Source: an uncultured Thermoplasmatales archaeon (GTDB lineage Archaea; Thermoplasmatota; E2; DHVEG-1). From it: a stretch of DNA of 64,000 nt. A program made the translations under genes and the position numbers. Below are positions 2,812 through 59,551 of this stretch, piece after piece (the stretch's first letter is position 1; each line of letters begins with the position of its first letter). The notes under the pieces were generated by a model. It saw only the letters and a program-made list of their open reading frames with translations. It ran no database searches and had not been told where the DNA came from. The stretch lies in contig CAZTFR010000005.1 in assembly GCA_964612945.1 (NCBI GenBank), positions 1,716 to 65,715 on the forward strand, given 5' to 3'.

Positions 2812-3336
2812 TCAAAAGAGTTCTTTGAATCGTTCGATATTGGGGTTGACCATGCCACATTTTTTGACGGGGAAAATATTCTCAAGAAGTTCGATGCCAT
2901 CAATGATTTGCTGATACTCGCGCATGAGGCTTTCGCTAAAACGCTTTATTTGTTTGATATCTTTTGATGTTAAAATAAACAGCCAATCAAATGCTCCATG
3001 CAGATAGCTACTGCAGATGACATTAACCCCAAGTTCTTCTCCTTTTTTGTGGATGGTGAGCTTGACGATTTTATCTATTGCATCGCCTGCTGGTTTATTG
3101 GATCGTTTGATGAGCATGTAGAAATGTTTGAGTTCTAGTTTTTCAAAATCAGCAACGGCATAGTAGCCCCAGATAGTTTTGTTTTTTTCCAGTCGTTTGA
3201 TAATTCGCCAGACTTTTTGTCGTGAAAAACCGCATTTTTTTGCAATGTTGTCAATGCTTTCTTTTGCATTTGTTTGGAGTTCTGCAAGAATCTTTTTTTC
3301 ATCTCTATCTATTTGGGCTCGGCTTGATTTTGGCAT
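2812..3336 (-). CDS. lrp: Lrp/AsnC-family transcriptional regulator (HTH + RAM domain)
   Basis: N-terminal HTH (LDEKKILAELQTNAKESIDNIAKKCGFSRQKVWRIIKRLEKN) and a C-terminal RAM-like domain. Length 174 aa. Confidence 0.8.
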   Translation of the reverse strand: MPKSSRAQIDRDEKKILAELQTNAKESIDNIAKKCGFSRQKVWRIIKRLEKNKTIWGYYAVADFEKLELKHFYMLIKRSNKPAGDAIDKIVKLTIHKKGEELGVNVICSSYLHGAFDWLFILTSKDIKQIKRFSESLMREYQQIIDGIELLENIFPVKKCGMVNPNIERFKELF

Positions 3337-3362: not shown

Positions 3363-3797
3363 CTATAACATTCTTCTCTTAAATAGCTTACTCTTTGTAC
3401 CATTTATTTCATCTATAGTGATTTTTCCAAGTGTCTTCGTTGATTGTTGTGCAGAAATGAGGGTGTGGACTTGTTTGGTGTGTTCGTTTACCGTAAGAAC
3501 TCCGATGTGGTTGCCAATGAGGGTGTATTGGTGTTTTCGCAGCAGGCTGTAGATGTTCATGAGAGGAACAGCAAGGTAGACGTAGTCGGCGCCAAGTTGG
3601 TAGTTTTTGAGTTGGATGAGTGCTTTTTTCCAATCGCTGAGTTTGAGTTCTACTGCGATGACGTGGGTGTTGTTGAGAGCGATGAGATCAGCGCGGCAGT
3701 ATCCGATGCGTATTTCTGAAAATACCTGGTATCCTTGTTGTTGGAAGTAGTGAGTGACAGGCGGGCGGAGTTCATGTTCCTTTGAGAAGTGTTGCAT
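3363..3797 (-). CDS. PD-(D/E)xK nuclease, Holliday-junction resolvase Hjc-like
   Basis: EHEL...GYQVF...RADLIALNNTHVIAVELK aligns with the Hjc ERELxxLLxxxGFxVxR...DLVA...IEVK core (E, D, E-x-K). Length 144 aa. It overlaps the 3' end of the upstream polB-like gene by 26 nt. Confidence 0.6.
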   Translation of the reverse strand: MQHFSKEHELRPPVTHYFQQQGYQVFSEIRIGYCRADLIALNNTHVIAVELKLSDWKKALIQLKNYQLGADYVYLAVPLMNIYSLLRKHQYTLIGNHIGVLTVNEHTKQVHTLISAQQSTKTLGKITIDEINGTKSKLFKRRML

Positions 3798-6018
3798 AGG
3801 TTTGTTTCCTCATTTTTTTGGTGTTTAGATAGTGTTCGAATGTTTCTTTGGTGTATCCAAAGGGGGTCAGTAGGCTTTCTGCGCATTTAGCGAGGTGCCG
3901 CCGGTAGAAATCACGGTCAGGGGTGGTTGTTTCGGTGAGAAATTCTGCGATTTTAACTCGGTTTCGGGGGTCAGATGCGTGTTCGTCGGTGACCAGGTAG
4001 CGGACGGTTTGTCCGGGTTCAAAGTGGATGCCTGCATCGCGGAGTTGTATCAGTGCAGCTTTGGTAAGCGTGTTTGCTTTGTAGTCGGTGATGTCTCGGC
4101 TGATCTGGATGGTAAAGAGGAGGTCTTGTAGGGGGACTGTGCCTTCGAGAAGATGTTGGTAAAACGTGAGAGGTATTTTGAGAGCATGGGGGATCTGTTC
4201 GTAGAATTCGGTGGTAGTATGTGCCTGGGCAAGCGTGGTAAGCATTTCTTTCTGCATGACTTTAAGAAACGGTGGTGTGTTTTTTTGTCTGAGTTCGACA
4301 CCGCGGATGCGTAGTTTTCCTGCTGTGTTGAGGCCGTAGTAGCGGTTGAGAGCACCAACGTCGGTGTTTTTGCTGGGGAGAAAGACGATCCAGTGATACG
4401 TTGCTTCGATGTCGATACGTATGCCTGTGTGGGTGCTGATGTGTCTGGCGAGCTGCTCCGGGGTGAGACGGGGCGTATACGGTTGTATCCACAGGGAGTC
4501 GACGATGCCATGCAGGACGTAGTAACCGTGATGTTCGACGAGGTTGATGGTGGAAAGCAGGATGTCGCGGCTGTAGGCGGTGATGCTTTCATGGCATTCG
4601 ATGCGTCCGTAGCGGGCGTTGCGGTAGCCGGTGTAGCCGAAGCAGACGAGAAGAATCCATTTCCAGGCTTGTTGGAGTTCTTCGTATGTTTTGGTGTTGT
4701 ACTGGGGGTGTCGGGCGCGTGCTTTAAAGCAGAATCGTCTGTTGAGTATGGGCTCCAGGACTTGGGGGATGAGTCCTTTTTGTTTGGTGCAGATGGGATA
4801 CTTCAGTTGAGGAACTCGGTGTGTGGAGGTGGGGCAGCAGGAGCAGAGCAGGGTTTCCGGGCTGATATTGTGTTGGACCATGATGTGGGGGTAGAGTGAG
4901 GCGTAGTCGAGTTCGATTGCGCCTTCATGCAGGCCGATGTGTGGTTCGAGGATGAGGCCGCCGCGGTCGGCATTGAGAAGATCCCAGCTGGTTTTCCAGG
5001 ATTCCGGTTGATTTTTCTTCCAGGGGATGAGATAGTCCTGGCTCATAGCGGTGTTGACCTGTATCTGGCTGATCGCCGTGCCGGGTCCCAGGCGGGAGAG
5101 CATCTGCAGAGGGATGTTTGCACAGCGGGAGATGTCCAGAAGCCCTCGCAGACCGCTTTCGCCGTAGAGAAACGAGTTTTTCTGGTCAAGATGCACGCGT
5201 CCTTTGAGGGTATAGAAGGGTGGTCGGTAGACGATGTGGCCATAGCTGAAGTAGGATTTTCCCTGTTTTGCAGGTGCTTCATGAATGTGATCTCGTCCCA
5301 GGGTGAACTGGTGACCGATTGCGGCCTGTTTGGCACGATGGTAGAGGTAGGGCAGAAGTGTGCTGTCTCCGTCGTGGGTGTAGATGATATCTGGGTCTGT
5401 TGTTTGGAGGTGTTTCATCGCCGAAAGCAGGGTGTCTGCCTCGTTTTCTTCCTGTATTTCCATGTCATCAAGGATGAGAGCGCGGAGAGGGTCATGATGT
5501 GTTTTGATTCGTGCGGTGGTGTTTCGGGTGGCAGACAGATGCAGAGTTTTATAAGAAGGAAGAGGGTAGTCGATTGCCCACTGATCATCATGGAGATGAA
5601 AACGGCGGCCGTCCCAGCTGACCTGAGCGTTGCAGAAGAGGTGATGGTCGTTGAGGTATCTGGTGGGCAGGCGGATGTCAACGTTGTAGAGCTGGTAGTG
5701 ATGGTAGTTTCCCCAGGAGTCGATAAGGGCGGGGAGCCGGTGGAAGGCTTCCAGTGTTTTTGGGATGACCGTTAGGAAAAGCGTGGGTTTGGAGGATCCC
5801 AGTGTTGTTTTGTTGTAGGTAAAGCAGTAGTGTTTAATTTCAGGGAGCTGCCGAAGGGTGCGGGCAAGTGCGGTGAGTTTTTCATGGGATGCCTTGATGG
5901 AGACGCTGGGATGGTAGGGAGGGTGTATTTTATAGGGACGATGTCTTCCGGTAAGCCAGATCGTCATCGTGTTGTGGTGAAAGTCAGGGTAGACGTCCAG
6001 GATGTGTCCATGTATCAC
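3772..6018 (-). CDS. polB: Family B DNA polymerase homologue (archaeal PolB-like), highly divergent and probably catalytically impaired
   Basis: Collinear with archaeal PolB: an N-terminal ILDVxY start, ExoI D-x-E (LDDMEI), FTLGRD, motif A DYASLYPH, motif B KWILLVCFGYTGY, motif C HGIVDS. The ExoII Asp, ExoIII Asp, motif-B N/S and the first motif-C Asp are all substituted. Extreme H/T/P/Y/Q-rich composition. GTG start. Confidence 0.85.
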   Translation of the reverse strand: MIHGHILDVYPDFHHNTMTIWLTGRHRPYKIHPPYHPSVSIKASHEKLTALARTLRQLPEIKHYCFTYNKTTLGSSKPTLFLTVIPKTLEAFHRLPALIDSWGNYHHYQLYNVDIRLPTRYLNDHHLFCNAQVSWDGRRFHLHDDQWAIDYPLPSYKTLHLSATRNTTARIKTHHDPLRALILDDMEIQEENEADTLLSAMKHLQTTDPDIIYTHDGDSTLLPYLYHRAKQAAIGHQFTLGRDHIHEAPAKQGKSYFSYGHIVYRPPFYTLKGRVHLDQKNSFLYGESGLRGLLDISRCANIPLQMLSRLGPGTAISQIQVNTAMSQDYLIPWKKNQPESWKTSWDLLNADRGGLILEPHIGLHEGAIELDYASLYPHIMVQHNISPETLLCSCCPTSTHRVPQLKYPICTKQKGLIPQVLEPILNRRFCFKARARHPQYNTKTYEELQQAWKWILLVCFGYTGYRNARYGRIECHESITAYSRDILLSTINLVEHHGYYVLHGIVDSLWIQPYTPRLTPEQLARHISTHTGIRIDIEATYHWIVFLPSKNTDVGALNRYYGLNTAGKLRIRGVELRQKNTPPFLKVMQKEMLTTLAQAHTTTEFYEQIPHALKIPLTFYQHLLEGTVPLQDLLFTIQISRDITDYKANTLTKAALIQLRDAGIHFEPGQTVRYLVTDEHASDPRNRVKIAEFLTETTTPDRDFYRRHLAKCAESLLTPFGYTKETFEHYLNTKKMRKQTYATLLKGT

Positions 6019-6873
6019 CTACTGCGTCCCTCCCACCGAGGGCGCTATTTTTTGAAGCGGGGTGAAGTCGTCAAGGCTTTTTTGTGCGGTATGGCAGTGA
6101 TTGATGTGTGCGGTGGTGTTTTGGTTGAGAAGATGAATATGTGTGTAGTGGTGACGGGTGGTAAGAGAAACGACTTCGTGGGCATGCTGGTAAAAGAGGG
6201 GTTTGAGCGGTCGTCGTTTCCAAAAGGAGCTTTTTGAGTGATGGGTAAGCAGGGTGATGAGCCGGTAGGTGGTGGTAAGTGTGTTGAGTTTTTGCAGGGT
6301 GTAGGTGAGAAGAGCGGTAGCTTCTTTTGCAGGGACATCAGGGTCAAAAAAAAGGGTGGGAAACATGCCAATGATAAGGGTGCGCGGGGTGATCTGCTTG
6401 ATCATGGGTTCAAGGTATTCTTCAACGAGTGTGGTGAGTTGGTAGACGGTAAAGGCACGGCAGAGATAGACATGTTTGAGGAGATGGTGTTGGTTGAGAT
6501 GAAGCTTTCGAGCGTATGAGGCGAGTTGGTAGGGGTTTGCCTGCATGCCGCCGTCCAGGTAGAGGGTGGTGCTTTTGAAGGTATGGTAGGTGGATGCACA
6601 GAGGCGGTCCGGGAGATCTTTTATGAGATCGCTGGTGCCATCGATTGCGATGAGCTGCCCGGCTTTGAAGCCACCGAGGAGACGGTCCAGAGTGGTGATG
6701 CCGGAGTGGATGAACAGCTCTGGTTGGCAGCGCTGCTGAGTGAGAAGAAGAGATCGATGTTGTGGTGCGTGCGAGTGATGCACAAGTGGTATGCTCATAA
6801 GAGATGGGTGCCCCCTACAGAAAAAATCTGGTGGTACGCAGGGGCATAGGCGGGTGATGTTAAAAAGATACAA
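6019..6873 (-). CDS. RadA/RadB (RecA-superfamily) paralogue with degenerate Walker A and B motifs (predicted pseudo-ATPase)
   Basis: SGITTLDRLLGG...LKHVYLCRAFTVYQL...LIIGMFPTLFFD aligns with RadB/RadA (TGSKSLDELLGGG...LKHIYVARAF...LLIVDS). The GxxGxGKT P-loop is replaced by IDGTSDLIKD, and the Walker-B Asp by Gly. Its TAG stop is immediately followed by the polB GTG, so the two are translationally coupled. The true start may be an internal Met. Confidence 0.65.
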   Translation of the reverse strand: MYLFNITRLCPCVPPDFFCRGHPSLMSIPLVHHSHAPQHRSLLLTQQRCQPELFIHSGITTLDRLLGGFKAGQLIAIDGTSDLIKDLPDRLCASTYHTFKSTTLYLDGGMQANPYQLASYARKLHLNQHHLLKHVYLCRAFTVYQLTTLVEEYLEPMIKQITPRTLIIGMFPTLFFDPDVPAKEATALLTYTLQKLNTLTTTYRLITLLTHHSKSSFWKRRPLKPLFYQHAHEVVSLTTRHHYTHIHLLNQNTTAHINHCHTAQKSLDDFTPLQKIAPSVGGTQ

Positions 6874-6909: not shown

Positions 6910-7467
6910 TCAGAGATGAGATTGCTTTTTCTTTTTTTTCGATTTCTTAGAAGATGCTTCTTCTGTACCGAGATGCAGTGTTCCGGTGGGAAGCGGTTTT
7001 CCTTTTTCTACATAGGATTCTGCTCGATCAGAAAGGGATTGTTGCAGCTTAGTAAGTTCTCGTTCGAGCCTTTCGACTTCTTTTGTTTTTCCTTTCTGTT
7101 TGTATTCCTGGATTTTAGCCTGGAGAATCTCAATTTCTTTTTGAATCGTTTTGATCGCCTGAGCGACCCATTCCTCGATGTTTTGCTCGGTGAGCATCTC
7201 TTTAAGGCGTTGTTCGAACTGTGATCGATCAGTATCTTTGATTTTTGTATACGAACGTCTTTTGTAGGGATCAACAGATGCTGGTGTATGCAGTGGAGAT
7301 AGAGCAGCAGTCGTGCTTCCTTCTTTTTTGATGATCTCATTAATGCCCATACGAATAACATCACTCAGCGTCATCCCGAGCCGGTCTGCTATTTGAGTGA
7401 TATGCTGATACATCCACGGGGAAAGACGGATATGCACCATCGACTGCTCAGCTGATTTGTATACCAT
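6910..7467 (-). CDS. Ribbon-helix-helix (CopG/Arc-like) DNA-binding protein with a long K/E-rich coiled-coil tail
   Basis: N-terminal VHIRLSPWMYQHITQIADRLGMTLSDVIRMGINEII is a typical RHH beta-strand plus two helices. The C-terminal ~110 aa are heptad-like and charged, ending in a poly-Lys stretch. Confidence 0.5.
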   Translation of the reverse strand: MVYKSAEQSMVHIRLSPWMYQHITQIADRLGMTLSDVIRMGINEIIKKEGSTTAALSPLHTPASVDPYKRRSYTKIKDTDRSQFEQRLKEMLTEQNIEEWVAQAIKTIQKEIEILQAKIQEYKQKGKTKEVERLERELTKLQQSLSDRAESYVEKGKPLPTGTLHLGTEEASSKKSKKKKKQSHL

Positions 7468-7668: not shown

Positions 7669-9105
7669 ATGACACAAGTAAGCTTTTACGGCGGCGTCGA
7701 CGAAATCGGCGGAAACAAGATTCTTCTCGAAGATCAAGACACCCGCATCTTTCTTGACTTCGGACTGGGCTTTAAACGACGGGGCATGTACTTTGAGGAA
7801 TTCCTCACCCCCCGATCTGCAAACGGCATCGGCGATTTTCTTGAACTCAACCTACTCCCGGACATCCCTGGCATCTACCGAACCGATCTGCTCAGCCATC
7901 TCGGACGAACCCCTGAAGACGTCACCGTCCAAGCAGTCCTCTTAAGTCACGCCCACGCCGATCACGCCAACTACATCTCCTTTCTCCACCAAGACATACC
8001 TGTCTACTGCGGGGAGACCTCAAAATATCTCCTGCAAGCAATCGAAGAACAATGCATCAGAAGCATCGAAAACGAGGTCACAAAATACAAAGAACGACCC
8101 ATCTACCGCGGCGACTACAAAAAACCACCTATCAAACGCACCTTCAACACCTTCCGAACCGGCGACACCGTACACATCGGATCCCTGGACATCGAACCCA
8201 TCCATGTCGACCACAGCGTCCCCGGTGCCTACGGCTTTCTCATCCACACCTCAGAGGGAACCATCGTCTACACCGGCGATCTGCGCATGCATGGAAAAAA
8301 CGCACAAATGACCACCGACTTCATCCAAAAAGCACGAAAAGCAAAACCAGTCGCCCTCATCACCGAAGGAACGCGCATCGACCTCCCCCAAACCGATGAA
8401 TCCGAACAAAACGTCTACCAGCAGTCCAAACAGGAAATAGAGCAATGCAAAAAACTTTCTATCGTCGACTTTAACTTCAAAGACATCGACCGGTTCACCA
8501 CGTTTTATCAAATCGCAAAAGACCTCGGAAGAACACTGGTCATCAGCTTCAAACACGCCTGCTTTCTCGAACGATACCACCAAGACAAAAAACTACAAGC
8601 CCCCAACAGCACCGACAAGCACATCAAACTTCTCAAACCCAAACGCCTCACCGGCACCTACATCGACGAAGACTACACCGACTACTATATAAAGAAACGA
8701 CTGAATTATGAAAACATTATCACCGCCGAAGACATCACCAAAAACCCCACACAGTACATGGTCGTCCTCAACTTCTACTACTTCAACCGAATGGTCGATC
8801 TCAAACCACATCACGGCGTCTACATCCACAGCCTCTCCGAACCCTTCAACGAAGAAATGGAAATCAGCTACGAACGCATGCACAACTGGCTCACCCACTA
8901 CCACCTCAAATTTGTCCAATCACACTGCTCCGGACACATCTCCGGACCAGATCTCAAAGACCTCATCCACAAAATCAACCCAAAACACCTCTTCCCCATC
9001 CACACCGAACACCCCGAGCTCTTCCAAGACTTCCCTATGCACGTCACACGCGTACAAGAAGGAAAAACATATACCCTACCCACGCAAAAAATACTAAACC
9101 ATTAG
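7669..9105 (+). CDS. rnj: Metallo-beta-lactamase/beta-CASP ribonuclease, archaeal RNase J-like
   Basis: Starts MTQVSFYGGVDEIGGNKILLE. HAHADH (the HxHxDH motif) is present, followed by a beta-CASP region. No N-terminal KH domains, so aCPSF1 is excluded. Length 478 aa. Confidence 0.75.
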   Translation: MTQVSFYGGVDEIGGNKILLEDQDTRIFLDFGLGFKRRGMYFEEFLTPRSANGIGDFLELNLLPDIPGIYRTDLLSHLGRTPEDVTVQAVLLSHAHADHANYISFLHQDIPVYCGETSKYLLQAIEEQCIRSIENEVTKYKERPIYRGDYKKPPIKRTFNTFRTGDTVHIGSLDIEPIHVDHSVPGAYGFLIHTSEGTIVYTGDLRMHGKNAQMTTDFIQKARKAKPVALITEGTRIDLPQTDESEQNVYQQSKQEIEQCKKLSIVDFNFKDIDRFTTFYQIAKDLGRTLVISFKHACFLERYHQDKKLQAPNSTDKHIKLLKPKRLTGTYIDEDYTDYYIKKRLNYENIITAEDITKNPTQYMVVLNFYYFNRMVDLKPHHGVYIHSLSEPFNEEMEISYERMHNWLTHYHLKFVQSHCSGHISGPDLKDLIHKINPKHLFPIHTEHPELFQDFPMHVTRVQEGKTYTLPTQKILNH

Positions 9106-9119
9106 GAGAATGAAACCCT

Positions 9120-10196
9120 ATGACTGATATCTATCAGTATGATAAAAAAAACGAACAAAACCTGATAAAAGCAGACTCTGTGAAACGCAAAAAAGAACAA
9201 TACATCGAAAATCTCAGAGAGGGAGATGCAGTCGGCGACTTTTTCGCTGTCAAATCCAAACGACCTCTCCGCCCTTACAAACGAGGAACCTTCTTTGAAC
9301 TCATCGCAGGCGACAAAACCGGCGATATCAGCATCAAATACTGGGGGGGAGACAACAAAGACCGCGTCAAACGACTCTACGACAGCTTCGACATCGGAGA
9401 CGTCATACAGATACGCACCGGCGCAGTTGAAATCTTTGAAGAAAAAATGCAAATATCAGTCAACGAACAAACCGGTGGTCTTCGAAAATGCGCACCCACA
9501 GAATACGATGCCTCAGATTTTCTTGCCACACTCACCGAAGAAGAAATTAACAATCTCTACAAAATCGTCGAAACAGAAATCAAAAATCTCACCAACAAAT
9601 CACTCCAAACCCTACTTGCCGAATTCTTCAACGACGCCACCTTTGTCAAACAATTCAAAGCATCGCCCTCAGCGATGACCCATCACCATAACTACATCGG
9701 CGGAAACCTCGAACACACCGTCGGCGTCATACAGCTCACCAAAACCATCTGCACACAATATCCAGATATCAACCAGGATCTTGTGATATGCGGAGCCATC
9801 CTTCATGATGTCGGAAAACTCAAAGAATACGAATACACCGCCGCCATAGGCAAAACCGATGAAGGCAACTTCATCGGACACATCGTCATGGGCGACCGCT
9901 GGATACAGGAAAAAATCGGCATACTCCGAAACAAAGGAACAGCCTTTGCCGAACCACTTGAATTACAACTCCGCCACATGATCTTAAGCCACCATGGCCG
10001 CTACGAATACGGATCACCACGGATGCCACAAACCACCGAAGCAGTCGTCCTCCACCAAGCAGATCTAATGGATTCACAGGTCAAAAACTATCTACAGAAT
10101 GTAAAAGACGCCAGAAAAAACTCTGACTCCGACTGGGCGTTTATTTATGATCCCGATGTGGGGATGAGACGACCCATGTATTTAGGAAAAGACTAA
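9120..10196 (+). CDS. OB-fold + HD-domain phosphohydrolase, YhaM-like 3'-5' exonuclease family
   Basis: An N-terminal OB-fold segment (GDAVGDFFAVKS...GDVIQIRTGAVEIFEEKMQISV) is followed by an HD domain (HHNYIGGNLEHT...ILHDVGK...HH). The architecture matches bacterial YhaM. Confidence 0.7.
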   Translation: MTDIYQYDKKNEQNLIKADSVKRKKEQYIENLREGDAVGDFFAVKSKRPLRPYKRGTFFELIAGDKTGDISIKYWGGDNKDRVKRLYDSFDIGDVIQIRTGAVEIFEEKMQISVNEQTGGLRKCAPTEYDASDFLATLTEEEINNLYKIVETEIKNLTNKSLQTLLAEFFNDATFVKQFKASPSAMTHHHNYIGGNLEHTVGVIQLTKTICTQYPDINQDLVICGAILHDVGKLKEYEYTAAIGKTDEGNFIGHIVMGDRWIQEKIGILRNKGTAFAEPLELQLRHMILSHHGRYEYGSPRMPQTTEAVVLHQADLMDSQVKNYLQNVKDARKNSDSDWAFIYDPDVGMRRPMYLGKD

Positions 10197-14811: not shown

Positions 14812-16788
14812 TTAGATTTTTTTGAGAAATGAATGAATATCCGAGAGAACATCAGAAGATTGCGAGAGATCATTGAGATATTTTTTGAAACGAACTGCTC
14901 GTTTATCTAAAATCAATGCAAGTCCTCGATCAGTTTCCGTGCGAATCAATCGACCAATCGATTGTTGGAGTTTTCGAGCTGTGGGGGCCTCCACGGTATA
15001 CTCCCAGCCTTTACCAAATTTGAGATCATAATATTTCTTTAGCCCACGCTGTCGAGCTGTTGGTTTAGGATAGGGAATACCTACGATGACTGCGATTTCA
15101 AGCTGTTTAGCGGGAAAATCCATCCCTTCACTGATGCGGCCACCCATCACAGACAGTAACGCTGCACCTTTGCCTTGTGATTCACCACAGGTCTTAAAAT
15201 CAGTAACTAAGTCCATGAGGTCCATCTGAGACATGGACTGTTCCTCAATGTAGAGCAGTCGTTGGATGTCATTGTATTGCTGCTGTTGTTTAAACGATGA
15301 GAGAATATTGAAACTAGGGAAAAACACAATGGTGTTCTGAGGAAAGGTGTTGCAGATCTCTTGAATATACGTCCACATTTTGGTAAGATTTTCTTCATTT
15401 CGCATGATGTCTTCATATCGTGTGGTGACATCGCGGGTGTACAAGATTTTTCGATTTTCTTTGGGAAAGGGAGAAGGATAAAAGACAAGTCCTGTATCAG
15501 TTGGGAGGTCGAGGGAGTCACGGTATTCCTCAAGTGGTTTGAGCGTGCCGGACATGTGAATGGTTGAGTGCACCTCTGAAAAAATACCGGCGCCCACGGA
15601 TGGATCCAGGCAATATGCTTCGATGCGTGGGTTTTTAGCCCGGGTGGTATCAACGACGAGTTTGATGTATTGGTCCATCTCAATGGCGGTCCAGAACTGT
15701 AAAAACACGCCGAGTTTATGCAGAAACGAGCGGGGAAGTTTTCCTTCTTTTTGCCGGTATTCCTGGATTTTTTCACCATAGGCTACAAGATCGGCGATGA
15801 TGTCTTGAAGGACTTGTGAGGTGATCTTCAGTCTGCTGAGTATCTCTGTTTCTAGTTCGTGGGAGGGGATGAGTGCGTCTTCTTTTTCATATTTTGATAC
15901 TCTTCGCAACCCGTTTTCAAGCAGACCGTAGATGTAATTATCCCGTAGTGAGTTGACAATTTCGATGAGCATTTTGCAGAATTCTGAGACCAGAATTCGT
16001 CCATCAGCAAGTGAAGGATCACCGAATTTATCTGCCTCAATAAGACAGGTTTTCAGCATGAAATAAGTGAGCTGTGCGGAATGAATATCGCGGAGATAAT
16101 CCGGGAGGTTATGTGCTTCATCGATGATGAGAATGATGTCTTCTTCTGCAATTGAGAGCCAGTCAAGAAGCATGTTGCGGATGTTTTTGTCAAAAATATA
16201 GATGTAGGGGACCACAACGAGAAGGGATTCGGCCATGAGTTGTTTGTTTACTTCATAGGGGCAGATGGTATGTTTTTTGCAGTAGCTGATCATTTCTTCT
16301 GCGGTGGGCACGTGTTGTTTGGCCCACTGAATTGTTTCTGACACAAGGTCTTTATTGTGAAGAAACGCCCGATAATACGGGCAGCCCTTACGTTTTTGGG
16401 GGTTGGTTGCCTGTTTTTTTTGGTTAGCGCAGAACCGGGAGAGTTCTTCTGAGGAGCCATTGGCAATATCTGGATCATCTCGTGCAAGAATACACATGTT
16501 TGCACGGCCCTGCATGCCCACACCATGGATCTGGTTATTTTGGGTTTTTTCTTTTATCGCCCGCAGTTCCATGATGACCTGGCGTTGTTGAGCGTTTGTA
16601 CGGGTGGTGTAGATGATTTTTTTCTCCTGCTCAAGGGAAAGAGGCAGTGCTGCAGAGAGCGTGCAGATGGTTTTTCCCGTCCCGGTCCCTGATTCGAAGA
16701 CAAAATGGGTATGAGCGTTGATTGCGTTGGTGACATCACGGATGATGTTGTCCTGATTTTTACGTGGCGTGTACGGAAAAAAGTCCAT
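14812..16788 (-). CDS. xpd: ATP-dependent DNA helicase XPD/Rad3 (DinG family, SF2) with FeS-cluster cysteines
   Basis: YTPRKNQ...FESGTGTGKT (Walker A), IIDEAHNLPDY (DEAH box). Conserved Cys residues lie between motifs I and II, consistent with a 4Fe-4S domain. Length 658 aa. Confidence 0.9.
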   Translation of the reverse strand: MDFFPYTPRKNQDNIIRDVTNAINAHTHFVFESGTGTGKTICTLSAALPLSLEQEKKIIYTTRTNAQQRQVIMELRAIKEKTQNNQIHGVGMQGRANMCILARDDPDIANGSSEELSRFCANQKKQATNPQKRKGCPYYRAFLHNKDLVSETIQWAKQHVPTAEEMISYCKKHTICPYEVNKQLMAESLLVVVPYIYIFDKNIRNMLLDWLSIAEEDIILIIDEAHNLPDYLRDIHSAQLTYFMLKTCLIEADKFGDPSLADGRILVSEFCKMLIEIVNSLRDNYIYGLLENGLRRVSKYEKEDALIPSHELETEILSRLKITSQVLQDIIADLVAYGEKIQEYRQKEGKLPRSFLHKLGVFLQFWTAIEMDQYIKLVVDTTRAKNPRIEAYCLDPSVGAGIFSEVHSTIHMSGTLKPLEEYRDSLDLPTDTGLVFYPSPFPKENRKILYTRDVTTRYEDIMRNEENLTKMWTYIQEICNTFPQNTIVFFPSFNILSSFKQQQQYNDIQRLLYIEEQSMSQMDLMDLVTDFKTCGESQGKGAALLSVMGGRISEGMDFPAKQLEIAVIVGIPYPKPTARQRGLKKYYDLKFGKGWEYTVEAPTARKLQQSIGRLIRTETDRGLALILDKRAVRFKKYLNDLSQSSDVLSDIHSFLKKI

Positions 16789-21420: not shown

Positions 21421-23838
21421 TTAGCTGATTACAAACGGACCTAAAGACAACGCAAAGGAAGTAAGATTTTCACGTCCAACAGAGACACAGATTTGAATTC
21501 TACCAAGCCCAAACTGAGCAGTCTCTACCGAACCAATATCTCCACAGTTCAAATCATACAAGGCAATCGTTTTTGGATGACGAGGATACAAAAGAATACC
21601 CTCTAAAGCAGTAACCGTAAGTGTAATATTCATCTCAGAAACAGCAAAATCACCCATATTAATAACTTCACCAAAGAGTTTTATCGGAGCTGTTTTCGTC
21701 CGCAACAAAAGACTGGTGACGGTGACCTGTTTAGCCGGAGACCAGTCACTTTGCACCCCATACGAATCACGAGCTTTTACTCGAACAAGATAGCTGCCTT
21801 GTTCTTTCCATAGATGAAAGGATTTCGGTTCAGAACGCCATCCACTTGTTGTTCCATCACCCCAATCAAAAAGATAAAACACCTCATCACCCTCCGGATC
21901 AGAAACCGCTGAGGTAAAAAACGTATGATTCCTATTAACAGAGAGACCTCCTGGCCCCGCAGGGGCGCCTGGAGTTTCAGGTGGCGCACTGAGTTCTATG
22001 ATCAGGGTGGGATCTCCAAAAAGATTTAACCCATAGTAGACCCATCGCATACATCCTTCATTAATTCGATAGAGGTTATCCTCCTTGGAATCCTGATTTG
22101 CCTGACCAAGCGAAGTAAAACTTTCTTCAAATATGGCATCATAAAACTCCCGATGAAACCGCTGTGAAGGACCATCTGTTGTTCCTTGTGCACCCCAGCC
22201 ATACCGCGCATTCCAAATCCCTGCAAATGCCGCATGAGCCGTTTTCACCGTAAACGATTCTGCAATACAATCTACACCAGTAGGATTATCAAATCCACCA
22301 GCCATACAACCCTGTGAATACATAAAAGCGGGATACTCATTTGTAAGCTCTTGTTCTACATCAAGGATAGAAAGTTTCATATTTGTTTGATAAAACGCAT
22401 GTCCATCATGATTAATTAAACCGACATTCTGATTTATCCGGTCGATGAGTTCGGATTTCGGCCAATTATTATCAGACCAGTTTCTATCATACAGCTTATC
22501 GATTGCATACACGCCAGAGGGGATACCCATAGTAGTATACCAATACTTGTCACACTGATCGATCAAGTCATCCATCGAATTTCCACCCCATCGTGCCACT
22601 CCAGTAAAACCAAGATCCTCCCCAACCATCAACGCCGTACTAAGACAGGGATCTTCAACGGTGAGATAGGTACAGGTTTTTTCAACAAAATTCTCGACCT
22701 CACTGAGCGTATCAACACAGGCACGTCCCACATAGACTTCAGCAATAAGATCAACATCGCCACCTTCATCGCCATCATCTGGTTCACCCCATTTATCATC
22801 ATTATCATAGTTAAACGTTCCATCCAGGCATCCATAGTAAAAATCCGAAGGCATCTCCATGACGTCTCCACCAGACCATGCCTCAACCCAAAGTTGCTGA
22901 GCAGGGACCTGCTCCGTATCCCCACCGAGTAACACATAATCTACGCCTTGATCAAGATACTCCGTTGAGATATATTCTCGAATCGCTTGGGGTGTTGTCC
23001 TATTTATTTCTTCTATTGTAACAATAGATGTCTGTAAGCCTTGCTCTTCATGGACAGATTTCAAGGGCAAAAATCCCTCCTTCAGTTGTTCTGTAGTAAT
23101 AATGAGAAGATGATGAGGTGAAAACCCCGTAGTTCGTGGCTGATCTGCGGAGAGCGGATAACTTTGAAGTTGCTCAGGGTTATCAACTCTGTTTTGTACA
23201 GCAAGATAGTCCCCATAGCTGTCTCGATACAGAGGTGAAAGGTTTTTATCTGTCGAAGATGTCTGTATGGTAAGCTGAATATTAGAGGAAAAGCAAAGTG
23301 ACTGATCAGAAGAATCATATACTATGGGTTTCAACTGAAGAACTAGCAGTTGATAGCCCCTGAAGTAATAGGTGCCAATAACCCTATACGAGCTACTATC
23401 AGACGGTGACGGCTCTGAAATAGCTGGTATAACTCGATTCTTAACAGTGCAAAAAGGTACAGGATATTCTGCATTTTTCAGACGAAATCCACTTCCTAAC
23501 GATATTGTTTCATCTGAAGAACACCTGATATCTTCTAGCTGCGAGTTTGCCGGAAGCAAAATGATTGCTGATTGAATAGGTAGTAGGGGATGTTCGGGAT
23601 TTGCTGACTGACTTATACCCGGTATCTGCACGAAATCATAGGGTTGATCATCAATTATCTTTTGGGTGAGGATGGGGTCTGAAAATATATACTCAAGCTG
23701 TATCGAATTTGGTGGCAATTGAGATTTTTTTAGACCACTGATGGATATCGATGAACCAATGAAGAGGAAGATTAAAAAAGTAGCAAGAAGGAGACTGAGA
23801 AAACAGCCCTGTTTTCTCATGTCCTGCCACCAAGGCAT
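21421..23838 (-). CDS. Secreted peptidase C25 (gingipain-like cysteine protease) with a PKD domain and a C-terminal type-A module
   Basis: Signal peptide present. YVLLGGDTEQVPAQ, SDFYYG and VYVGRACVDTLSEV match the gingipain YVLLIGD..IPAK / IGRFSCES motifs. Catalytic His (INHDGHAF) and Cys (SQGCMAGGFD) are retained. PKD motif FDWGDGTTSGW. C-terminus ...FGLGRIQI...SLGPFVIS. Confidence 0.75.
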   Translation of the reverse strand: MPWWQDMRKQGCFLSLLLATFLIFLFIGSSISISGLKKSQLPPNSIQLEYIFSDPILTQKIIDDQPYDFVQIPGISQSANPEHPLLPIQSAIILLPANSQLEDIRCSSDETISLGSGFRLKNAEYPVPFCTVKNRVIPAISEPSPSDSSSYRVIGTYYFRGYQLLVLQLKPIVYDSSDQSLCFSSNIQLTIQTSSTDKNLSPLYRDSYGDYLAVQNRVDNPEQLQSYPLSADQPRTTGFSPHHLLIITTEQLKEGFLPLKSVHEEQGLQTSIVTIEEINRTTPQAIREYISTEYLDQGVDYVLLGGDTEQVPAQQLWVEAWSGGDVMEMPSDFYYGCLDGTFNYDNDDKWGEPDDGDEGGDVDLIAEVYVGRACVDTLSEVENFVEKTCTYLTVEDPCLSTALMVGEDLGFTGVARWGGNSMDDLIDQCDKYWYTTMGIPSGVYAIDKLYDRNWSDNNWPKSELIDRINQNVGLINHDGHAFYQTNMKLSILDVEQELTNEYPAFMYSQGCMAGGFDNPTGVDCIAESFTVKTAHAAFAGIWNARYGWGAQGTTDGPSQRFHREFYDAIFEESFTSLGQANQDSKEDNLYRINEGCMRWVYYGLNLFGDPTLIIELSAPPETPGAPAGPGGLSVNRNHTFFTSAVSDPEGDEVFYLFDWGDGTTSGWRSEPKSFHLWKEQGSYLVRVKARDSYGVQSDWSPAKQVTVTSLLLRTKTAPIKLFGEVINMGDFAVSEMNITLTVTALEGILLYPRHPKTIALYDLNCGDIGSVETAQFGLGRIQICVSVGRENLTSFALSLGPFVIS

Positions 23839-26357
23839 ATCAGATTTTGAATTCGTTGAAGCATAGTACTAGCCCACTGAAAAAACGGCGTAAGAAATGT
23901 CTCGAAGCGCTGGATAATTCGATTAAATATTGGAAACATCGGATGGGAGTTTTGATGTGATGTGGAAAGGGTGACTGGTACTGAACAGAAATCAGATATG
24001 TTATGTGAATTTTCTATAACAATTTCCCCAGTGAAATTTGATTGTTTTTCATCAGGTGCTGTGACAACGACAAAAACGCTGAATTCTTGACCGTCTGCTT
24101 GAAGGTCTTCACCATGTTCTGGGAAAAACTGCCAAGTTCCCCAATCGGGAGTCTCAATGATTTCCCAATCAAGACGAGAACCAGTTTCGCCTATATTTTT
24201 AACGACAAAACTCCCTGTTTCAGCAGTTCCAGCGACCATGGTTTCAAACACAAGGTTTCCTTCGCAGCTGAGATCAGATCGCGGTTGCCGGGTGGTAAAC
24301 CGCCAAACAGGGCTTTGCATAAATCTGTTTGAATCATCCCAAATTACAACCCGCCAATAGTATTCTGATGAATACGCAAGAGCTCCTACTTGATATGAAG
24401 ATTCCTCTTGTGCTATGGATACCACCGGTGGTGGATTAGTGGTTCCAAAGTAGACATCATAGGTAAGCCGCTCCTCAGGATCAGGATCACTACCGATCCA
24501 TTGGAGAACAGGGTTGATTGTATGGATATGTGCTCCATCTGCAGGACGCGGGTCAGTGGGTTGATGTGGTGGAAGATTAATTCTAAAGTGTTGCTCGGGC
24601 GTTGTCGTAAGTTTTCCTCTTTTATTTTTGTAGCAAATACTCCAACTAACAACAGTGCCTTGTGCAATCGTTGGATTCGACCAGGTAAAATTTGTCCATA
24701 CCCACGTGTCCAGAAGAGTGAAAATCATAGTGGGGGAACCATATTTCCGTCCACTTTTATGTTCGTTTTCTTCCTCTTCGCCATAGGTTGCAATATTATG
24801 AAAACCATGACGATAGAAGTTGTTTCGTTCTGTTTGAATCCATGCATCACTGCGCGCGTCATTAAAGACGTGGAATTCATCAAAATTGCCAGAGAAGAAT
24901 TTTGTTTTATTAGCATTTGCTCCTATGAATAATCCGTTGGTACTGGCGCTGAGAGGTTGAGTTAGATTCACCTCATTTTCTAGTATTCCATCGACAAAAA
25001 TGGACATTTTGTGTTGAAGGGTATCAACTCGCATAACCACATGTGTATCATATGATATAGTGCGATTCTCTGAGGCCACTGATTCGGTAGTAGTATCTTC
25101 ATAGGTGACTGTTGCAAGGTATTTTCCAGAATAGTCTCCCTGATTGGGTACGTCCATAGCTGGATTTTGTGATCCATTAGAAGAGAATATAGGACGACCA
25201 CTATACTCCACGCCCAGATTTAGCGTAATGGTATATGATTTATCTCTAGGAATGGTGAAGTTATTTATTTCTTTGAAATTATATCCACTAGTATCAGCAT
25301 CCCAACCGTTGCCAGTACTATCTGTGTCATCTATCATATGATGAACCATGAGGTAATCATCATTCCAGACACCTGCTGGATTTTCCTGACTCTCGCATTC
25401 AAGATTACCATAGTACATGTAAAGTTCTGTATCATCTGTTGAGCTGAGATATGGAACCCGTACCCAGGCGTTGAGTGATTTTCGATTAAAGGTTTCAATT
25501 TCATGATCATAGCGTATACTATTTGTCATATCGGTGAAGACAAAATCATCAGCATCTGCTTGTGCCTTGTAGAAATCAATGGAGGTACATCGTATTCGAA
25601 TGGGAAAATCTTCAAAATCATCAAGTACTTCAGTATGATCAATGGTAATCTTTTTTCTATATTTCCATGCTGGATCCCACCATTCTCCATCGAGATGATA
25701 CCAGGTGCCATCCTCATTGACATTTAAGACAGCCTCTTGCAGACCATACTCATCTTTTCCTTGTGCAGAAAGTACGACAAAATTCTCCGGGTTGATCTTT
25801 GATTTTGATTGCTGTACATTTTGATACTGTGGCGGTTTATTCAAAATAGTAATCGTTGCATTATACGTGTCTGGTTCAAGAAAATCTCCAGAAGTTGCTC
25901 CATACCTTGTGACTGGGACAAATGAAAGGTTATGTTCTCCATCGGTGGACTCCTGAAAGACTCGGACAATAATTGTGCAGAGCTGCCCTTGTCCAAGGGG
26001 CAGACCTTCGCCGGGTGTACCCTCTGATTCTGAAAACCAGATTTTAATACGCCGACCACCCGAAGGGGGTGTTTTTATGATATAATTATATGGGTCTTCA
26101 TCTACACAGTTATCAAATTTCAGATCATACATATCTATTTCAGATTCATTAAACACGATATGCATGTTTACCCAGTCAACTTCCTGACTCCAGTTACCAA
26201 ACAACGGGATTTCATGATCAATAACACCTGCACGAGCCGTGGTGTGTTGAATGCGGACACTATCCGCTTCAGGTTCAAATTCTGCGCTTCCAAGAACATT
26301 AGAAAATACAAGAACAATCATCAATATCCCGATAAAGAAACTCTTTGCTTTTTTCAT
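23817..26357 (-). CDS. Secreted surface protein: DUF2341 + LamG/concanavalin-like + FN3-like domain + C-terminal type-B module
   Basis: Signal peptide MKKAKSFFIGILMIVLVFSNVLGSA. WWDPAWKYRKKITIDHTEVLDDFEDFPIRI is the DUF2341 signature. LamG-like segment (…LFIGANANKTKFFSGNFDEFHVFN). FN3-like segment (YYWRVVIWD...PVWRFTT). The C-terminus contains FVVKNIGE. Confidence 0.7.
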   Translation of the reverse strand: MKKAKSFFIGILMIVLVFSNVLGSAEFEPEADSVRIQHTTARAGVIDHEIPLFGNWSQEVDWVNMHIVFNESEIDMYDLKFDNCVDEDPYNYIIKTPPSGGRRIKIWFSESEGTPGEGLPLGQGQLCTIIVRVFQESTDGEHNLSFVPVTRYGATSGDFLEPDTYNATITILNKPPQYQNVQQSKSKINPENFVVLSAQGKDEYGLQEAVLNVNEDGTWYHLDGEWWDPAWKYRKKITIDHTEVLDDFEDFPIRIRCTSIDFYKAQADADDFVFTDMTNSIRYDHEIETFNRKSLNAWVRVPYLSSTDDTELYMYYGNLECESQENPAGVWNDDYLMVHHMIDDTDSTGNGWDADTSGYNFKEINNFTIPRDKSYTITLNLGVEYSGRPIFSSNGSQNPAMDVPNQGDYSGKYLATVTYEDTTTESVASENRTISYDTHVVMRVDTLQHKMSIFVDGILENEVNLTQPLSASTNGLFIGANANKTKFFSGNFDEFHVFNDARSDAWIQTERNNFYRHGFHNIATYGEEEENEHKSGRKYGSPTMIFTLLDTWVWTNFTWSNPTIAQGTVVSWSICYKNKRGKLTTTPEQHFRINLPPHQPTDPRPADGAHIHTINPVLQWIGSDPDPEERLTYDVYFGTTNPPPVVSIAQEESSYQVGALAYSSEYYWRVVIWDDSNRFMQSPVWRFTTRQPRSDLSCEGNLVFETMVAGTAETGSFVVKNIGETGSRLDWEIIETPDWGTWQFFPEHGEDLQADGQEFSVFVVVTAPDEKQSNFTGEIVIENSHNISDFCSVPVTLSTSHQNSHPMFPIFNRIIQRFETFLTPFFQWASTMLQRIQNLICLGGRT

Positions 26358-29300: not shown

Positions 29301-29642
29301 ATCTTCTGAATAGGTCCAAATGACCTGATCGAAATCATCTTCTTGATGTCTATAGGCTACCATTTGAATTCCTCCCTCAAGACGGCCGATTGCAGGATGA
29401 GTTTGATTTCCAGGTCCATTAACTGATCGGTCGGTGGATATAAAGGAGAGGGATCCCTCATTAGAAGATAACTGGACCGTGAATTGATTAGGCATGATAT
29501 CATTAATTTCTTTAATTGTAAACTGTTGTTTAGTTTGTCTATTGCTTTGAATGTGTGTTGCAGTAGCAAAGCTTGTCATTAGAAGACAGAGTGTAACGGC
29601 AAGCAGTACTCCTTTTTTAAACATGATATTGTTTTTTCTCAT
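26358..29642 (-). CDS. Secreted BNR/Asp-box repeat protein (sialidase-like beta-propeller) with internal duplication, a PKD domain and a C-terminal type-B module
   Basis: Asp-box repeats SEDDGETF, SYDNGRTWS, STDDGRTY, THDGGETWS. The two halves are clearly homologous. PKD motif YYVDWGDGS. The start is chosen at the Met preceded by GGAGG (9-nt spacing). The track ORF extends to 29678. Confidence 0.7.
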   Translation of the reverse strand: MRKNNIMFKKGVLLAVTLCLLMTSFATATHIQSNRQTKQQFTIKEINDIMPNQFTVQLSSNEGSLSFISTDRSVNGPGNQTHPAIGRLEGGIQMVAYRHQEDDFDQVIWTYSEDDGETFGVGRYLAGGSGADYPSIQHWADSCFYGTMVPDENDAEGAALYLFKTTDPVEYGTYDLSRWDLSKGGFFNMVDSEIACDNSQNDHEFGIISLVISQYRCCGYPDVFDGPYIAYKDKSDPDLMHLNVYDDFMGCMHTDADIDAITEDSWAVYDWDDEGTIKLVYRKDNFNDLSHQGSIYTVENAEGNIKNPVISAYDDSIVIVAETDEQGNNDIVCFYGNGSYANKLKRVDIAFSSSDEQYPDLRHVEHSVFICSFEKDGVLYKSLSYDNGRTWSEEASFSGEETIVSEYKTADICDAGVRALFQVENENRDIAGEKIYSLRPTSPIIRGSSEGKINVEHEFTFEATDPENENISYYVDWGDGSDVEFFGPFNSGQQAARSHSWSEKGEYVVRAKAQDSYKVESTWATFSVTLPVSHDPNTEYADVSVERIDWEPVTEKLSVAHNAAVSPLVKEGSIPQPLLAGDQLHPALGRSLSGVHLFAYRDEESNKTVWTYSTDDGRTYDDGSVIEGTTGEDYPAIERWDTNRFFATLIPSISDGNAGTFYLLETDDPTDYESYDISRYPLNTLGYHSIRDIEIACDNTQENWRFGVASFISDKNGVNEPGYYNSGVNLPSLIYQTGPDEIVVSTYQEYQNHYHYDQCYHTDVDIDHSWHDVWSIYDTWTKIDGWRLILRQDYFADFSLHGELYFIEGEGNLSYPSIAADNGKLVILAVTTEKDNDDIICYHGNVNHLEVTPIATSLLDESFPDVRHVDGTTFVCTFMRDNILYSSVTHDGGETWSTPEELVDNVPFEYRSSSITDFGLQAVASVKIDNDVDILLEPKLIPRLSDLQCEGDLEFSDIQPGATITGEFVVKNIGEPLSLLAWETENIPTWGNWTILPKNGYTSTLDESKVNVIVELPLRPNVLYEETLRVRNVEDPDDFCDIPISISVPSSQFTPTHPLLQWVHTHLQDFPIFQLFFERLIDRTFTLFNWEGLH

Positions 29643-29646
29643 ATCT

Positions 29647-57607: not shown

Positions 57608-59551
<1,944 letters not shown>

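Follow-up and report, generated by a model that had tools for sequence, protein, structure and literature searches.

A PolB2-type DNA polymerase, probably a non-proofreading translesion extender, encoded next to an inactivated RadA paralogue at a Thermoplasmatota locus without PPB2

The PolB2 group of family B DNA polymerases was historically described as 'inactivated archaeal PolB' (Rogozin 2008; Makarova 2014, PMC4104785). Purified Dpo2 of Sulfolobus islandicus is nevertheless a robust polymerase that has no 3'-5' exonuclease activity and extends mismatched and lesion-opposed termini (PMC8764526), and damage-induced mutagenesis depends on Dpo2 (PMC7390963). Published models assemble PolB2, iRadA and three copies of PPB2 into one complex (PolB2-iRadA-3xPPB2; PMC11791011). 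PPB2 (arCOG07300 / Pfam PF26485, DUF8156) is a helical protein of ~80-90 aa with an N-terminal MGRT arm, which is central to the modeled mutasome and is touched by a D(K/R) motif of PolB2 (PMC11791011). PIP motifs are known in iRadA proteins, and horizontal transfer of PolB2 among archaea has been reported (PMC11791011).

Here, we analyzed a 64,000-nt stretch of DNA (hereafter the window) and show that its ORF at 3772..6018, which has a GTG start, encodes a 748-aa polymerase of this group. The coordinates match those of an earlier note exactly. Two adjacent genes make up the core of the locus:

3772..6018, minus strand: PolB2, a Dpo2-type family B DNA polymerase (orthology, Pfam/PDB matches, NCBIfam scores, AF2 model)
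6019..6798, minus strand: iRadA, a RadA/Rad51 paralogue without the N-terminal domain (Pfam Rad51 at 0.005; RAD51D alignment)

The 748-aa protein is homologous to family B polymerases, collinearly and far above chance, as the earlier note had proposed from a hand alignment: Pfam PF00136 matches it (E=1.6e-33), HMMER pairs it with P. abyssi PolB in the PDB (E=5.9e-41), and a PDB search with the PolB2 family profile reaches E=5e-60. Over its full length, it is 56% identical to P0026, the PolB2 of Thermoplasmatales archaeon SG8-52-3, which is catalogued with operon type 1a (iRadA-PPB2-PolB2) and motif IID (Timinskas, Timinskas & Venclovas 2025, suppl. file 1); the nearest relative reaches 58-59% identity. 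The PolB2-type NCBIfam models NF004416 and NF004418 score 434 and 417 bits, respectively, against only 103-152 bits (i.e., 3-4x lower) for the Dpo1/PolB3-type models, and Pfu PolB3, run as a control on the same models, shows the reverse ranking. The 417 bits lie under the 692-bit cut-off of NF004418, verified as the haloarchaeal PolB2 model, and the PolB2 assignment was made from identity to a catalogued member and NCBIfam scores. The family is already large (~740 representative clusters at E<1e-30), and the window adds one further Thermoplasmatota lineage to it. We put at about 85% the probability that the protein is a PolB2 with a non-proofreading, active translesion-extender role, partnered with iRadA.

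These scores also bear on a different origin, namely that the gene encodes a mobile-element or viral polymerase (casposon PolB or protein-primed PolB) or the cell's replicative PolB3. Its GC content above that of the flanking genes and the reported horizontal transfer of PolB2 among archaea (PMC11791011) would suit such an origin, which we nonetheless regard as barely credible given that the PolB2 models score far above the PolB1/PolB3 models, that the exonuclease is dead, and that synteny with iRadA is kept across ~80 loci. Moreover, Cas1, integrase, terminal repeats and viral genes are absent nearby, and the neighbors are chromosomal housekeeping genes (DnaJ, CarAB, XPD, SecY, ProRS).

Among the described systems, SG8-52-3 (locus L001) shares with the window PolB2 motif A, KW.LLVCFGYTGY, HGI(I/V)DS and the same exonuclease-domain deletion, as well as an upstream iRadA and a PD-(D/E)xK gene that runs into the 3' end of PolB2. 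It differs in carrying a 78-aa PPB2 (VGRTVPTF...) in a 232-nt iRadA-PolB2 gap, whereas the window has no gap, and in amino acid composition (His 6.3% and Thr 9.1% in the window PolB2 vs 2.2% and 3.0%). Dpo2 of S. islandicus and S. solfataricus, a distant relative compared here by published description, has in common the I-x-D motif C, the catalytic residues of motifs A and B, the lack of an exonuclease site and a locus that also encodes iRadA; in contrast, it is much shorter (motif C at 401-403 vs 505-507 in the window), its exonuclease domain is more decayed, and its operon follows the order PPB2-PolB2-iRadA (type 3a). Haloarchaeal PolB2 (Haloarcula, Haloferax volcanii) shares HGIVDS, ADRGG and a carboxylate-free ExoI strand (LRLSVPVTE), while PPB2, SRAP and orc1/cdc6 neighbor it, none of which occurs in the window. 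The closest solved structures are those of Thermococcales PolB (Pfu/KOD/9°N; PolB3 group), which have the same fold (TM 0.76) and collinear motifs A, B and C but only ~20% identity, intact ExoI-III, DTD as motif C and KxxxNSxYG; the exonuclease domain of the window protein is ~57 aa shorter.

The AF2 model of the window PolB2, from a run with 118 sequences, has a pLDDT of 95.3 and a pTM of 0.93; an earlier AlphaFold run with 26 close relatives (pLDDT 70, pTM 0.49) was set aside in its favor. Foldseek aligns the model with KOD/9°N PolB at TM 0.76-0.77 over ~820 alignment columns. Model and sequence both show a complete PolB fold with N-terminal, exonuclease-like, palm, fingers and thumb domains.

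Motif registers were taken from HMMER and from MAFFT L-INS-i with verified Pfu PolB and 160 relatives, with family counts taken over 161 sequences. In the exonuclease domain, they place the following features:

5524..5550, minus strand: ExoI-equivalent beta-strand KTLHLSATR (K157-R165), with Pfu D141 replaced by S162 and, by ungapped extension, E143 by T164
5455..5472, minus strand: LDDMEI (residues 183-188), beta-hairpin that follows the ExoI strand and corresponds to Pfu IIMISYADE
5344..5379, minus strand: ExoII-equivalent THDGDSTLLPYL, with Pfu D215 replaced by L221 (HMMER)
5152..5202, minus strand: junction of a ~57-aa deletion, between GRVHLD and QKNSFLYGESG, with the ExoIII Tyr missing

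Because the HMMER alignment starts past residue 190 (residues 1-190 not being alignable to PDB polymerases), the ExoI register rests on MAFFT with the 160 intermediates, predicted secondary structure and conservation. MAFFT pairs Pfu D141 with S162 and leaves E143 opposite a gap, so that the pairing of E143 with T164 is our ungapped extension of the KTLHLSATR strand, which the AF2 model predicts at residues 158-165. On this alignment, both ExoI carboxylates are lost. The earlier note had read LDDMEI as a surviving ExoI D-x-E; that peptide instead forms the hairpin after the carboxylate-free true strand, and its Glu position is occupied by C/V/T/I/L in relatives. The loss of the ExoII Asp is seen with both programs (L221), and MAFFT finds L/I/V at this position in 112/161 sequences. 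The proposed ExoIII YxxxD (YGESG) was mis-registered, since HMMER pairs FLYGESG with Pab FELGKEF, ~10 residues downstream of ExoIII. A shortening of ~60 aa had likewise been noticed and is real (~57 aa), but it lies inside the exonuclease domain, at GRVHLD/QKNSF, rather than in the linker to the palm. The deletion takes out the Tyr of YxxxD together with the first part of its helix, and in the AF2 model strand 275-278 is followed directly by helix 283-300. As MAFFT and HMMER place the deletion differently, the register of the near-invariant D278 is ambiguous, equaling either Pfu D258 (GRIHFD) or D315. Sequence and model thus show a destroyed 3'-5' exonuclease site, its ExoI and ExoII carboxylates replaced and the start of its ExoIII helix deleted. 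The changes in exonuclease and polymerase motifs are family-wide and not special to the window gene; the ExoI/ExoII positions are not conserved as carboxylates among the 161.

The polymerase domain carries the following features:

4963..4968, minus strand: D351-R352, putative PolB2 'D(K/R)' motif, in ADRGG before the palm (position, conservation)
4879..4914, minus strand: motif A ELDYASLYPHIM, with catalytic D371 and with Y376 at the Pfu Y410 position
4789..4845, minus strand: Cys cluster CSCC...C (C392, C394, C395, C410), conserved to 90% or more among 118 diverse PolB2
4624..4662, minus strand: motif B KWILLVCFGYTGY, with K453 kept and Asn replaced by L457, Ser by V458 and Tyr by F460
4495..4512, minus strand: motif C HGIVDS, with the first Asp replaced by I505, then V506 and catalytic D507 kept

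What the earlier note had reported for these three motifs holds with both HMMER and MAFFT: motif A is kept (D371, Y376), motif B has lost its Asn/Ser (L457, V458), and motif C has changed from YSDTDG to HGIVDS, the motif-A Asp and the second motif-C Asp (D507) surviving. In the MAFFT alignment, the motif A Asp is present in 159/161 sequences and the Tyr in 143/161; Y376, aligned to Pfu Y410, presumably acts as the steric gate. The motif B Lys occurs in 159/161, and V/L/I replaces Asn in 160/161. At the first motif C position, 124 of the 161 have I, 24 have L and none has Asp, while the D507 position is Asp in 160/161. The IVD of the window belongs to the IVD/IID type of haloarchaeal and Sulfolobus PolB2. 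Overall, the polymerase core (D371, Y376, K453, D507) is intact and under strong purifying selection, with 4 private substitutions at 186 columns invariant in 25 relatives (family range 0-10).

With its core residues kept, and with activity shown for Dpo2, whose motif C is likewise I-x-D, the polymerase of the window PolB2 is very probably live. The competing reading, found before 2020 and in the earlier note, is that the protein is a PolB paralogue without catalytic activity, serving complexes of replication or repair only as a structural or regulatory part. It draws on the lost first motif-C Asp and motif-B Asn/Ser, the destroyed exonuclease site, the historical annotation as inactivated (PMC4104785) and a partner, iRadA, that is itself an inactivated enzyme. 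We consider it improbable: the metal- and triphosphate-binding D371, D507 and K453 are (near-)invariant across the 161, which is hard to square with a scaffold, and Dpo2 with an identical I-x-D is a robust polymerase in vitro (PMC8764526) and is genetically required for mutagenesis (PMC7390963). The earlier note had thus recognized the right group in likening the gene to 'inactivated' PolB paralogues, i.e., PolB2, under a label that Dpo2 activity has since overturned; by analogy with Dpo2, that label is outdated, the exonuclease being dead and the polymerase very probably live. We suggest the label PolB2/Dpo2-type translesion polymerase (exonuclease-deficient), with iRadA for the neighbor, in place of 'inactivated PolB' or the generic 'DNA polymerase elongation subunit'.

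iRadA is co-oriented with PolB2, and its stop abuts the PolB2 GTG with 0 nt between. It lies upstream of PolB2 in 79/81 related loci. This adjacent inactivated RadA, the defining genomic context, was passed over in the earlier note. From the alignment, its start is likely M26 of the 6019-6873 ORF. Its Walker A reads GTSDLIKD (GPGSGKT vs GTSDLIK in the RAD51D alignment) and its Walker B has lost the Asp (VVVVDS vs LIIGMF), so by its sequence iRadA is ATPase-dead. One further feature lies close to its C-terminus:

6061..6084, minus strand: PIP-like motif QKSLDDFT, putatively PCNA-binding (by-eye match to QxxLxxFF)

Within this tail, Q264, L267 and F270 show 90% or higher conservation across 45 iRadA sequences.

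By homology to the Sulfolobus enzyme, the window PolB2 would be an active, distributive, non-proofreading polymerase. Another polymerase would insert a base opposite the lesion, and PolB2 would then extend the mismatched or lesion-paired primer end, i.e., act as an 'extender' in translesion synthesis (TLS). In line with the published complex models, PolB2 would be bound to iRadA via a Rad51-like oligomerization motif, and the iRadA tail would recruit PolB2 to PCNA. The PPB2 trimer, the usual third subunit, is not at the locus and might be encoded elsewhere in the genome or be dispensable in this sub-lineage. A functional analogue is eukaryotic Pol zeta (Rev3), a B-family TLS polymerase that acts as an extender. 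Another is the E. coli Pol V mutasome, its use of RecA paralleling iRadA (PMC11791011). Such TLS enzymes are exonuclease-deficient or error-tolerant and work together with accessory subunits. Both are analogies only: Pol V is a Y-family polymerase, the partners of Rev3 differ, and homology of accessory subunits is implied only for RecA/RadA.

As a counterweight to an active TLS role, the biochemistry, like the evidence for damage-inducible expression, comes from Sulfolobus Dpo2, which is much shorter and distant, and not from a Thermoplasmatota PolB2. A further counterweight is that the locus departs from the canonical three-gene operon, the N-terminal arm of PPB2 being central in the published models. 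On the PolB2 side of that contact, ADRGG probably corresponds to the published D(K/R) motif, judging by where it lies with respect to the palm domain and by the halophile sequences; its D351 and G353 do not vary across 118 diverse PolB2.

PPB2 was absent across the 64-kb window in searches with tblastn and a 78-sequence HMM (positive control 1.5e-51), while the order iRadA-PPB2(MGRT...)-PolB2 is found in 75/79 related loci with upstream iRadA. The PolB2 locus is a two-component operon variant, provided that the rest of the genome does not encode PPB2 either. Besides the window, PPB2-less junctions occur in the P0070 lineage (L014/L015) and in that of P0045 (L099). The NJ tree puts the window PolB2 in an H/T-rich clade with P0114, P0045, P0070 and P0089, a clade in which compositional attraction is possible. 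The sister grouping is weakly supported (bootstrap 48% for P0114, 22% for P0045+P0070), and PPB2 may have been lost once or several times. It is a tentative and rather doubtful idea that a Thermoplasmatota sub-lineage (window, L014/L015, L099) runs the PolB2 TLS complex without PPB2, perhaps via iRadA and the clade-specific, translationally coupled PD-(D/E)xK protein as a new fourth component. In a few lineages, purifying selection maintains PolB2-iRadA although the operon encodes no PPB2, which bears on whether PPB2 is obligatory.

The missing PPB2 also invites the view that this copy is decaying or was disabled recently, and that its ORF stays open merely through a C/A-rich, G/T-poor coding strand with few stops. 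The GC content of 0.53 against ~0.40 in the surroundings, the strong skew with numerous long but spurious ORFs in alternative frames, and the closest relative being just 58-59% identical speak in its favor. The composition of the PolB2 gene is indeed strongly biased and stop-poor, so the long ORF is weaker evidence of function, for which the conservation test (4/186) compensates. We judge decay very improbable, as those 4 changes at family-invariant positions lie inside the family range, the motif residues and D351-R352 are all kept, and conserved residues are retained in iRadA and the PD-(D/E)xK gene. In addition, the composition bias reaches other window genes and most genes of the related lineage L014, and the PPB2-less layout recurs in two lineages (L014/L015, L099) whose PolB2 is ~42% different and has thus persisted under selection.

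A candidate trace of PPB2 and a candidate replacement for it were discarded. The terminal 'VGGT' of the iRadA ORF looked like what might be left of a PPB2 start, (M/V)GRT, but the corresponding ends in L014 (...YMGSYTTA*) and L099 (...FMLPH*) share nothing with it, and we consider it a coincidence. The other was a possible PPB2 replacement upstream of iRadA:

6910..7467, minus strand: 185-aa protein with ribbon-helix-helix (RHH) and coiled coil, 36 nt upstream of iRadA (weak RelB/BrnA/ORF56 RHH matches)

This protein had a homologue in none of ~100 related loci, including the other PPB2-less ones, and its codon skew differs; its membership in the operon is doubtful.

On the other side of PolB2 lies a gene that recurs among relatives:

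3363..3797, minus strand: small PD-(D/E)xK nuclease-like protein, 144 aa (26-nt overlap with the PolB2 3' end)

The protein matches the NCBIfam sce7726 family (7e-10) and Pfam PDDEXK_9 (6e-4), with D37, E50-x-K52, Q62 and K64-N-Y-Q67 conserved. Its gene lies directly 3' of PolB2 in 53/84 related loci and may represent a clade-specific fourth operon gene. Most Thermoplasmatales loci link this unnamed protein closely to PolB2, and in the complete genome CP070724 its gene lies between PolB2 and SRAP, an abasic-site sensor.

On the minus strand the gene order is RHH/coiled-coil, iRadA (an inactivated RadA paralogue), PolB2 (a Dpo2-type family B DNA polymerase), PD-(D/E)xK and Lrp/AsnC regulator.

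Genes at the PolB2 locus
6910-7467, minus strand: RHH/coiled-coil protein, 185 aa (N-terminal ribbon-helix-helix, long coiled coil, Lys-rich tail)
6019-6798, minus strand, within the 6019-6873 ORF: iRadA, Rad51/RadA core
3772-6018, minus strand: PolB2 ORF, 748 aa, GTG start
3363-3797, minus strand: PD-(D/E)xK protein, 144 aa, sharing 26 nt with the 3' end of PolB2
2812-3336, minus strand: Lrp/AsnC regulator

The homology of the PolB2 ORF to family B polymerases is real and collinear over its full length. Pfam returned DNA_pol_B at 1.6e-33 and a weak DNA_pol_B_exo1 match, and the best solved-structure matches were Thermococcales PolB (P. abyssi, 5.9e-41), lifted to 5e-60 by a profile built from 26 relatives. 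Given 118 aligned sequences, AlphaFold2 produced a very confident model (pLDDT 95.3, pTM 0.93) that superposed on DNA-bound KOD, 9°N and Tgo PolB at TM 0.76-0.77. The collinear PolB homologue that the earlier note had aligned by hand is thus borne out by Pfam, PDB matches and the predicted model.

Database searches returned >1,500 relatives, the best being 53-59% identical at full length and from Thermoplasmatota MAGs; an exhaustive search of representatives gave 738 clusters at E<1e-30. A Thermoplasmatales archaeon SG8-52-3 protein (P0026, 56% identity) is catalogued as PolB2, operon type '1a (iRadA-PPB2-PolB2)', with motif HGIIDSLWV / IID, by Timinskas, Timinskas & Venclovas 2025 (suppl. file 1; PMC11791011), where haloarchaeal PolB2 rows read HGIVDSIWV. 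Our protein scored 434 bits with NCBIfam NF004416 and 417 bits with NF004418, versus 103-152 bits with Dpo1-type models, while Pfu PolB3 gave the reverse ranking; NF004418 was verified as the haloarchaeal PolB2 model, as a published halophile PolB2 fragment scores 812 bits. Judged by its sequence, given the catalogued relative, the motif match and these scores, the protein is PolB2. The feature that the earlier note likened to inactivated PolB paralogues is real but was only partly recognised: it belongs to a PolB2 member in which only the proofreading site is inactivated. The label 'inactivated' fits that site only, and the ORF is another member of a well-described family rather than a new kind of inactivated polymerase.

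Motif registers were taken from a MAFFT L-INS-i alignment of Pfu PolB (reference sequence identical to PDB 3a2f_A), the window protein and 160 relatives; HMMER concurs on motifs A, B and C and the ExoII position. Motif A, ELDYASLYPHIM, retains D371 and Y376; motif B, KWILLVCFGYTGY, retains K453, with Asn replaced by L457, Ser by V458 and Tyr by F460; and motif C, HGIVDS, retains D507, with I505 at the first Asp. The motif A Asp and motif B Lys each occur in 159/161 sequences and the second motif C Asp in 160/161, whereas the first motif C Asp is found in none (I in 124, L in 24). The polymerase catalytic core is, as aligned, intact. On all of these points (motif A kept, motif B Asn/Ser lost, only the second motif C Asp kept) the hand alignment had been correct, as it had in calling the ExoII Asp lost, since both MAFFT and HMMER place L221 there.

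Its other exonuclease assignments fared less well. LDDMEI (residues 183-188), proposed as an intact ExoI, is a hairpin past the ExoI strand (Pfu equivalent IIMISYADE..KVITW; model strands 178-183 and 186-188), and its Glu is replaced by C, V, T, I or L among relatives. ExoI itself corresponds to the strand KTLHLSATR (residues 158-165 in the model), where MAFFT aligns Pfu D141 with S162 and E143 with a gap, or with T164 if the strand is read ungapped; relatives often carry FDIKR or LDVTS here. YGESG, proposed as ExoIII, is misplaced as well: in the HMMER alignment FLYGESG sits opposite Pab FELGKEF, which comes after YSMED. The supposed shortening of the exonuclease-to-palm linker by about 60 aa is real in extent (~57 aa) but lies inside the exonuclease domain, between GRVHLD and QKNSF, and removes the ExoIII Tyr. 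A near-invariant D278 is equivalent to either Pfu D258 or D315. All three exonuclease motifs are disabled on these alignments, and the losses, like the polymerase motif changes, are family-wide, with none peculiar to the window.

Two further features were noted among PolB2 sequences. C392, C394, C395 and C410 (CxCC-x14-C; 4789-4845, minus strand) are at least 90% conserved in 118 diverse PolB2 and may form a metal-binding or disulfide site; Pfu PolB Cys428 and Cys442, which form a disulfide in that enzyme, align here. Eight PolB2 representatives (P0125, P0129, P0167, P0170, P0183, P0190, P0193 and P0240) are 1,200-1,300 aa long, and their matches to the window protein break at about residue 460/461, within motif B, which suggests intein insertions.

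The PolB2 gene has a GC content of 0.53 versus ~0.40 in its surroundings, with a C- and A-rich coding strand, and its product contains 6.3% His and 9.1% Thr. Because the region is stop-poor and spurious ORFs in other frames reach 282 aa, the open frame alone is weak evidence of function. At 186 columns invariant across 25 relatives, the window protein carries four private changes (F39V, A490T, F564N, V648A; family range 0-10), and conservation of this kind shows purifying selection to be acting on the gene. The bias is not limited to the operon, affecting other window genes, most genes of the related lineage L014 and many of L017. Third codon positions are extremely skewed in a gene subset (C>>G, GC3 skew -0.55 to -0.78, A>T, raised GC3) that includes DnaJ, Hsp20, the PolB2 operon, a beta-CASP RNase and a YhaM-like HD nuclease, with skew near zero in adjoining genes.

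Regions with coding-strand third-position skew
64-1161
1228-1791
3363-6873
7669-10196
42648-43256
55356-56081
57608-58006

The skew leaves these regions poor in stops and rich in spurious overlapping ORFs, and in L014 it affects most genes; it may stem from selection on codons, from transfer or from a mutation bias linked to expression.

The iRadA has GTSDLIKD as its Walker A, lacks the Walker B Asp and ends in QKSLDDFT, a PIP-like motif with at least 90% conservation at Q, L and F. The iRadA-PolB2 locus is the published PolB2 operon, to which Makarova et al. 2014 first drew attention and which was modelled in 2025 as a PolB2-iRadA-(PPB2)3 'mutasome' (PMC11791011). Directly supported here are the PolB fold, the dead exonuclease site, the conserved, intact polymerase core and the coupling to iRadA. 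By analogy with Dpo2 of S. islandicus and S. solfataricus (PMC8764526; PMC7390963), PolB2 would be an active, distributive, exonuclease-free enzyme that extends mismatched or lesion-opposed termini in damage tolerance. It may bind iRadA via a Rad51-like oligomerisation motif and reach PCNA by way of the iRadA tail, as the 2025 models predict (PMC11791011). The RHH/coiled-coil protein, 36 nt upstream of iRadA, had no homologue in ~100 related PolB2 loci and may be a local regulator, or unrelated.

We surveyed 13 genome loci, 80 metagenome loci and several contigs from exact protein look-up for PPB2, the small third operon component. Upstream sequence of 1.1 kb or more was available for 81 loci; 79 of them had iRadA upstream of PolB2, and 75 of these 79 carried an intact ~80-aa PPB2 (start MGRTVPTF...) in a ~230-nt iRadA-PolB2 gap; in locus L058 PPB2 was disrupted. 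At our locus the iRadA TAG abuts the PolB2 GTG with zero gap (junction 6018-6021), and neither tblastn nor a 78-sequence HMM (positive control 1.5e-51) detected PPB2 within the 64-kb window. The same PPB2-less junction occurs in two related lineages, L014/L015 (P0070; L014 5985-6001) and L099 (P0045; 2023-2067), whose PolB2 proteins group with ours in the PolB2 tree, in a single H/T-rich clade with weakly supported internal branching. Since the window PolB2 retains D351-R352, a motif type that binds the PPB2 arm in published models (PMC11791011), a PPB2 encoded elsewhere in the genome is mildly favoured. The published catalogue is limited to operons with all three components (PMC11791011), so the PPB2-less variant is undescribed there and represents a modest lead.

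The PolB2-coupled PD-(D/E)xK gene is likewise a modest lead. Of 84 loci, 53 carry it immediately after PolB2, mostly overlapping the PolB2 stop, and the complete genome CP070724 shows the order iRadA-PPB2-PolB2-PD-(D/E)xK-SRAP. Its product conserves D37, E50-x-K52, Q62 and K64-N-Y-Q67, matches sce7726 and PDDEXK_9 weakly, and has only 73 homologues, all unnamed and none with a precomputed Pfam domain; it is absent from the 2025 survey's list of enriched PolB2 neighbours (PMC11791011). Its most distant homologue (37% identity; locus L103, 1237-2385) adjoins an RNase_H_2 (PF13482) exonuclease-like gene, a family enriched near PolB2 in that survey (PMC11791011).

Elsewhere in the window, an XPD/Rad3-type helicase (DEAD_2, HBB, Helicase_C_2; 14812-16788, minus strand) is a further DNA-repair gene, at a distance of ~8 kb from the PolB2 operon. 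Very large genes follow one another at 21421-39850 (minus strand); their products, of 805-1,981 aa, are predicted to be secreted or located at the surface. Domain scans of those shorter than 1,981 aa gave Peptidase_C25+PKD, Laminin_G_3, BNR and subtilase+NosD/beta-helix.
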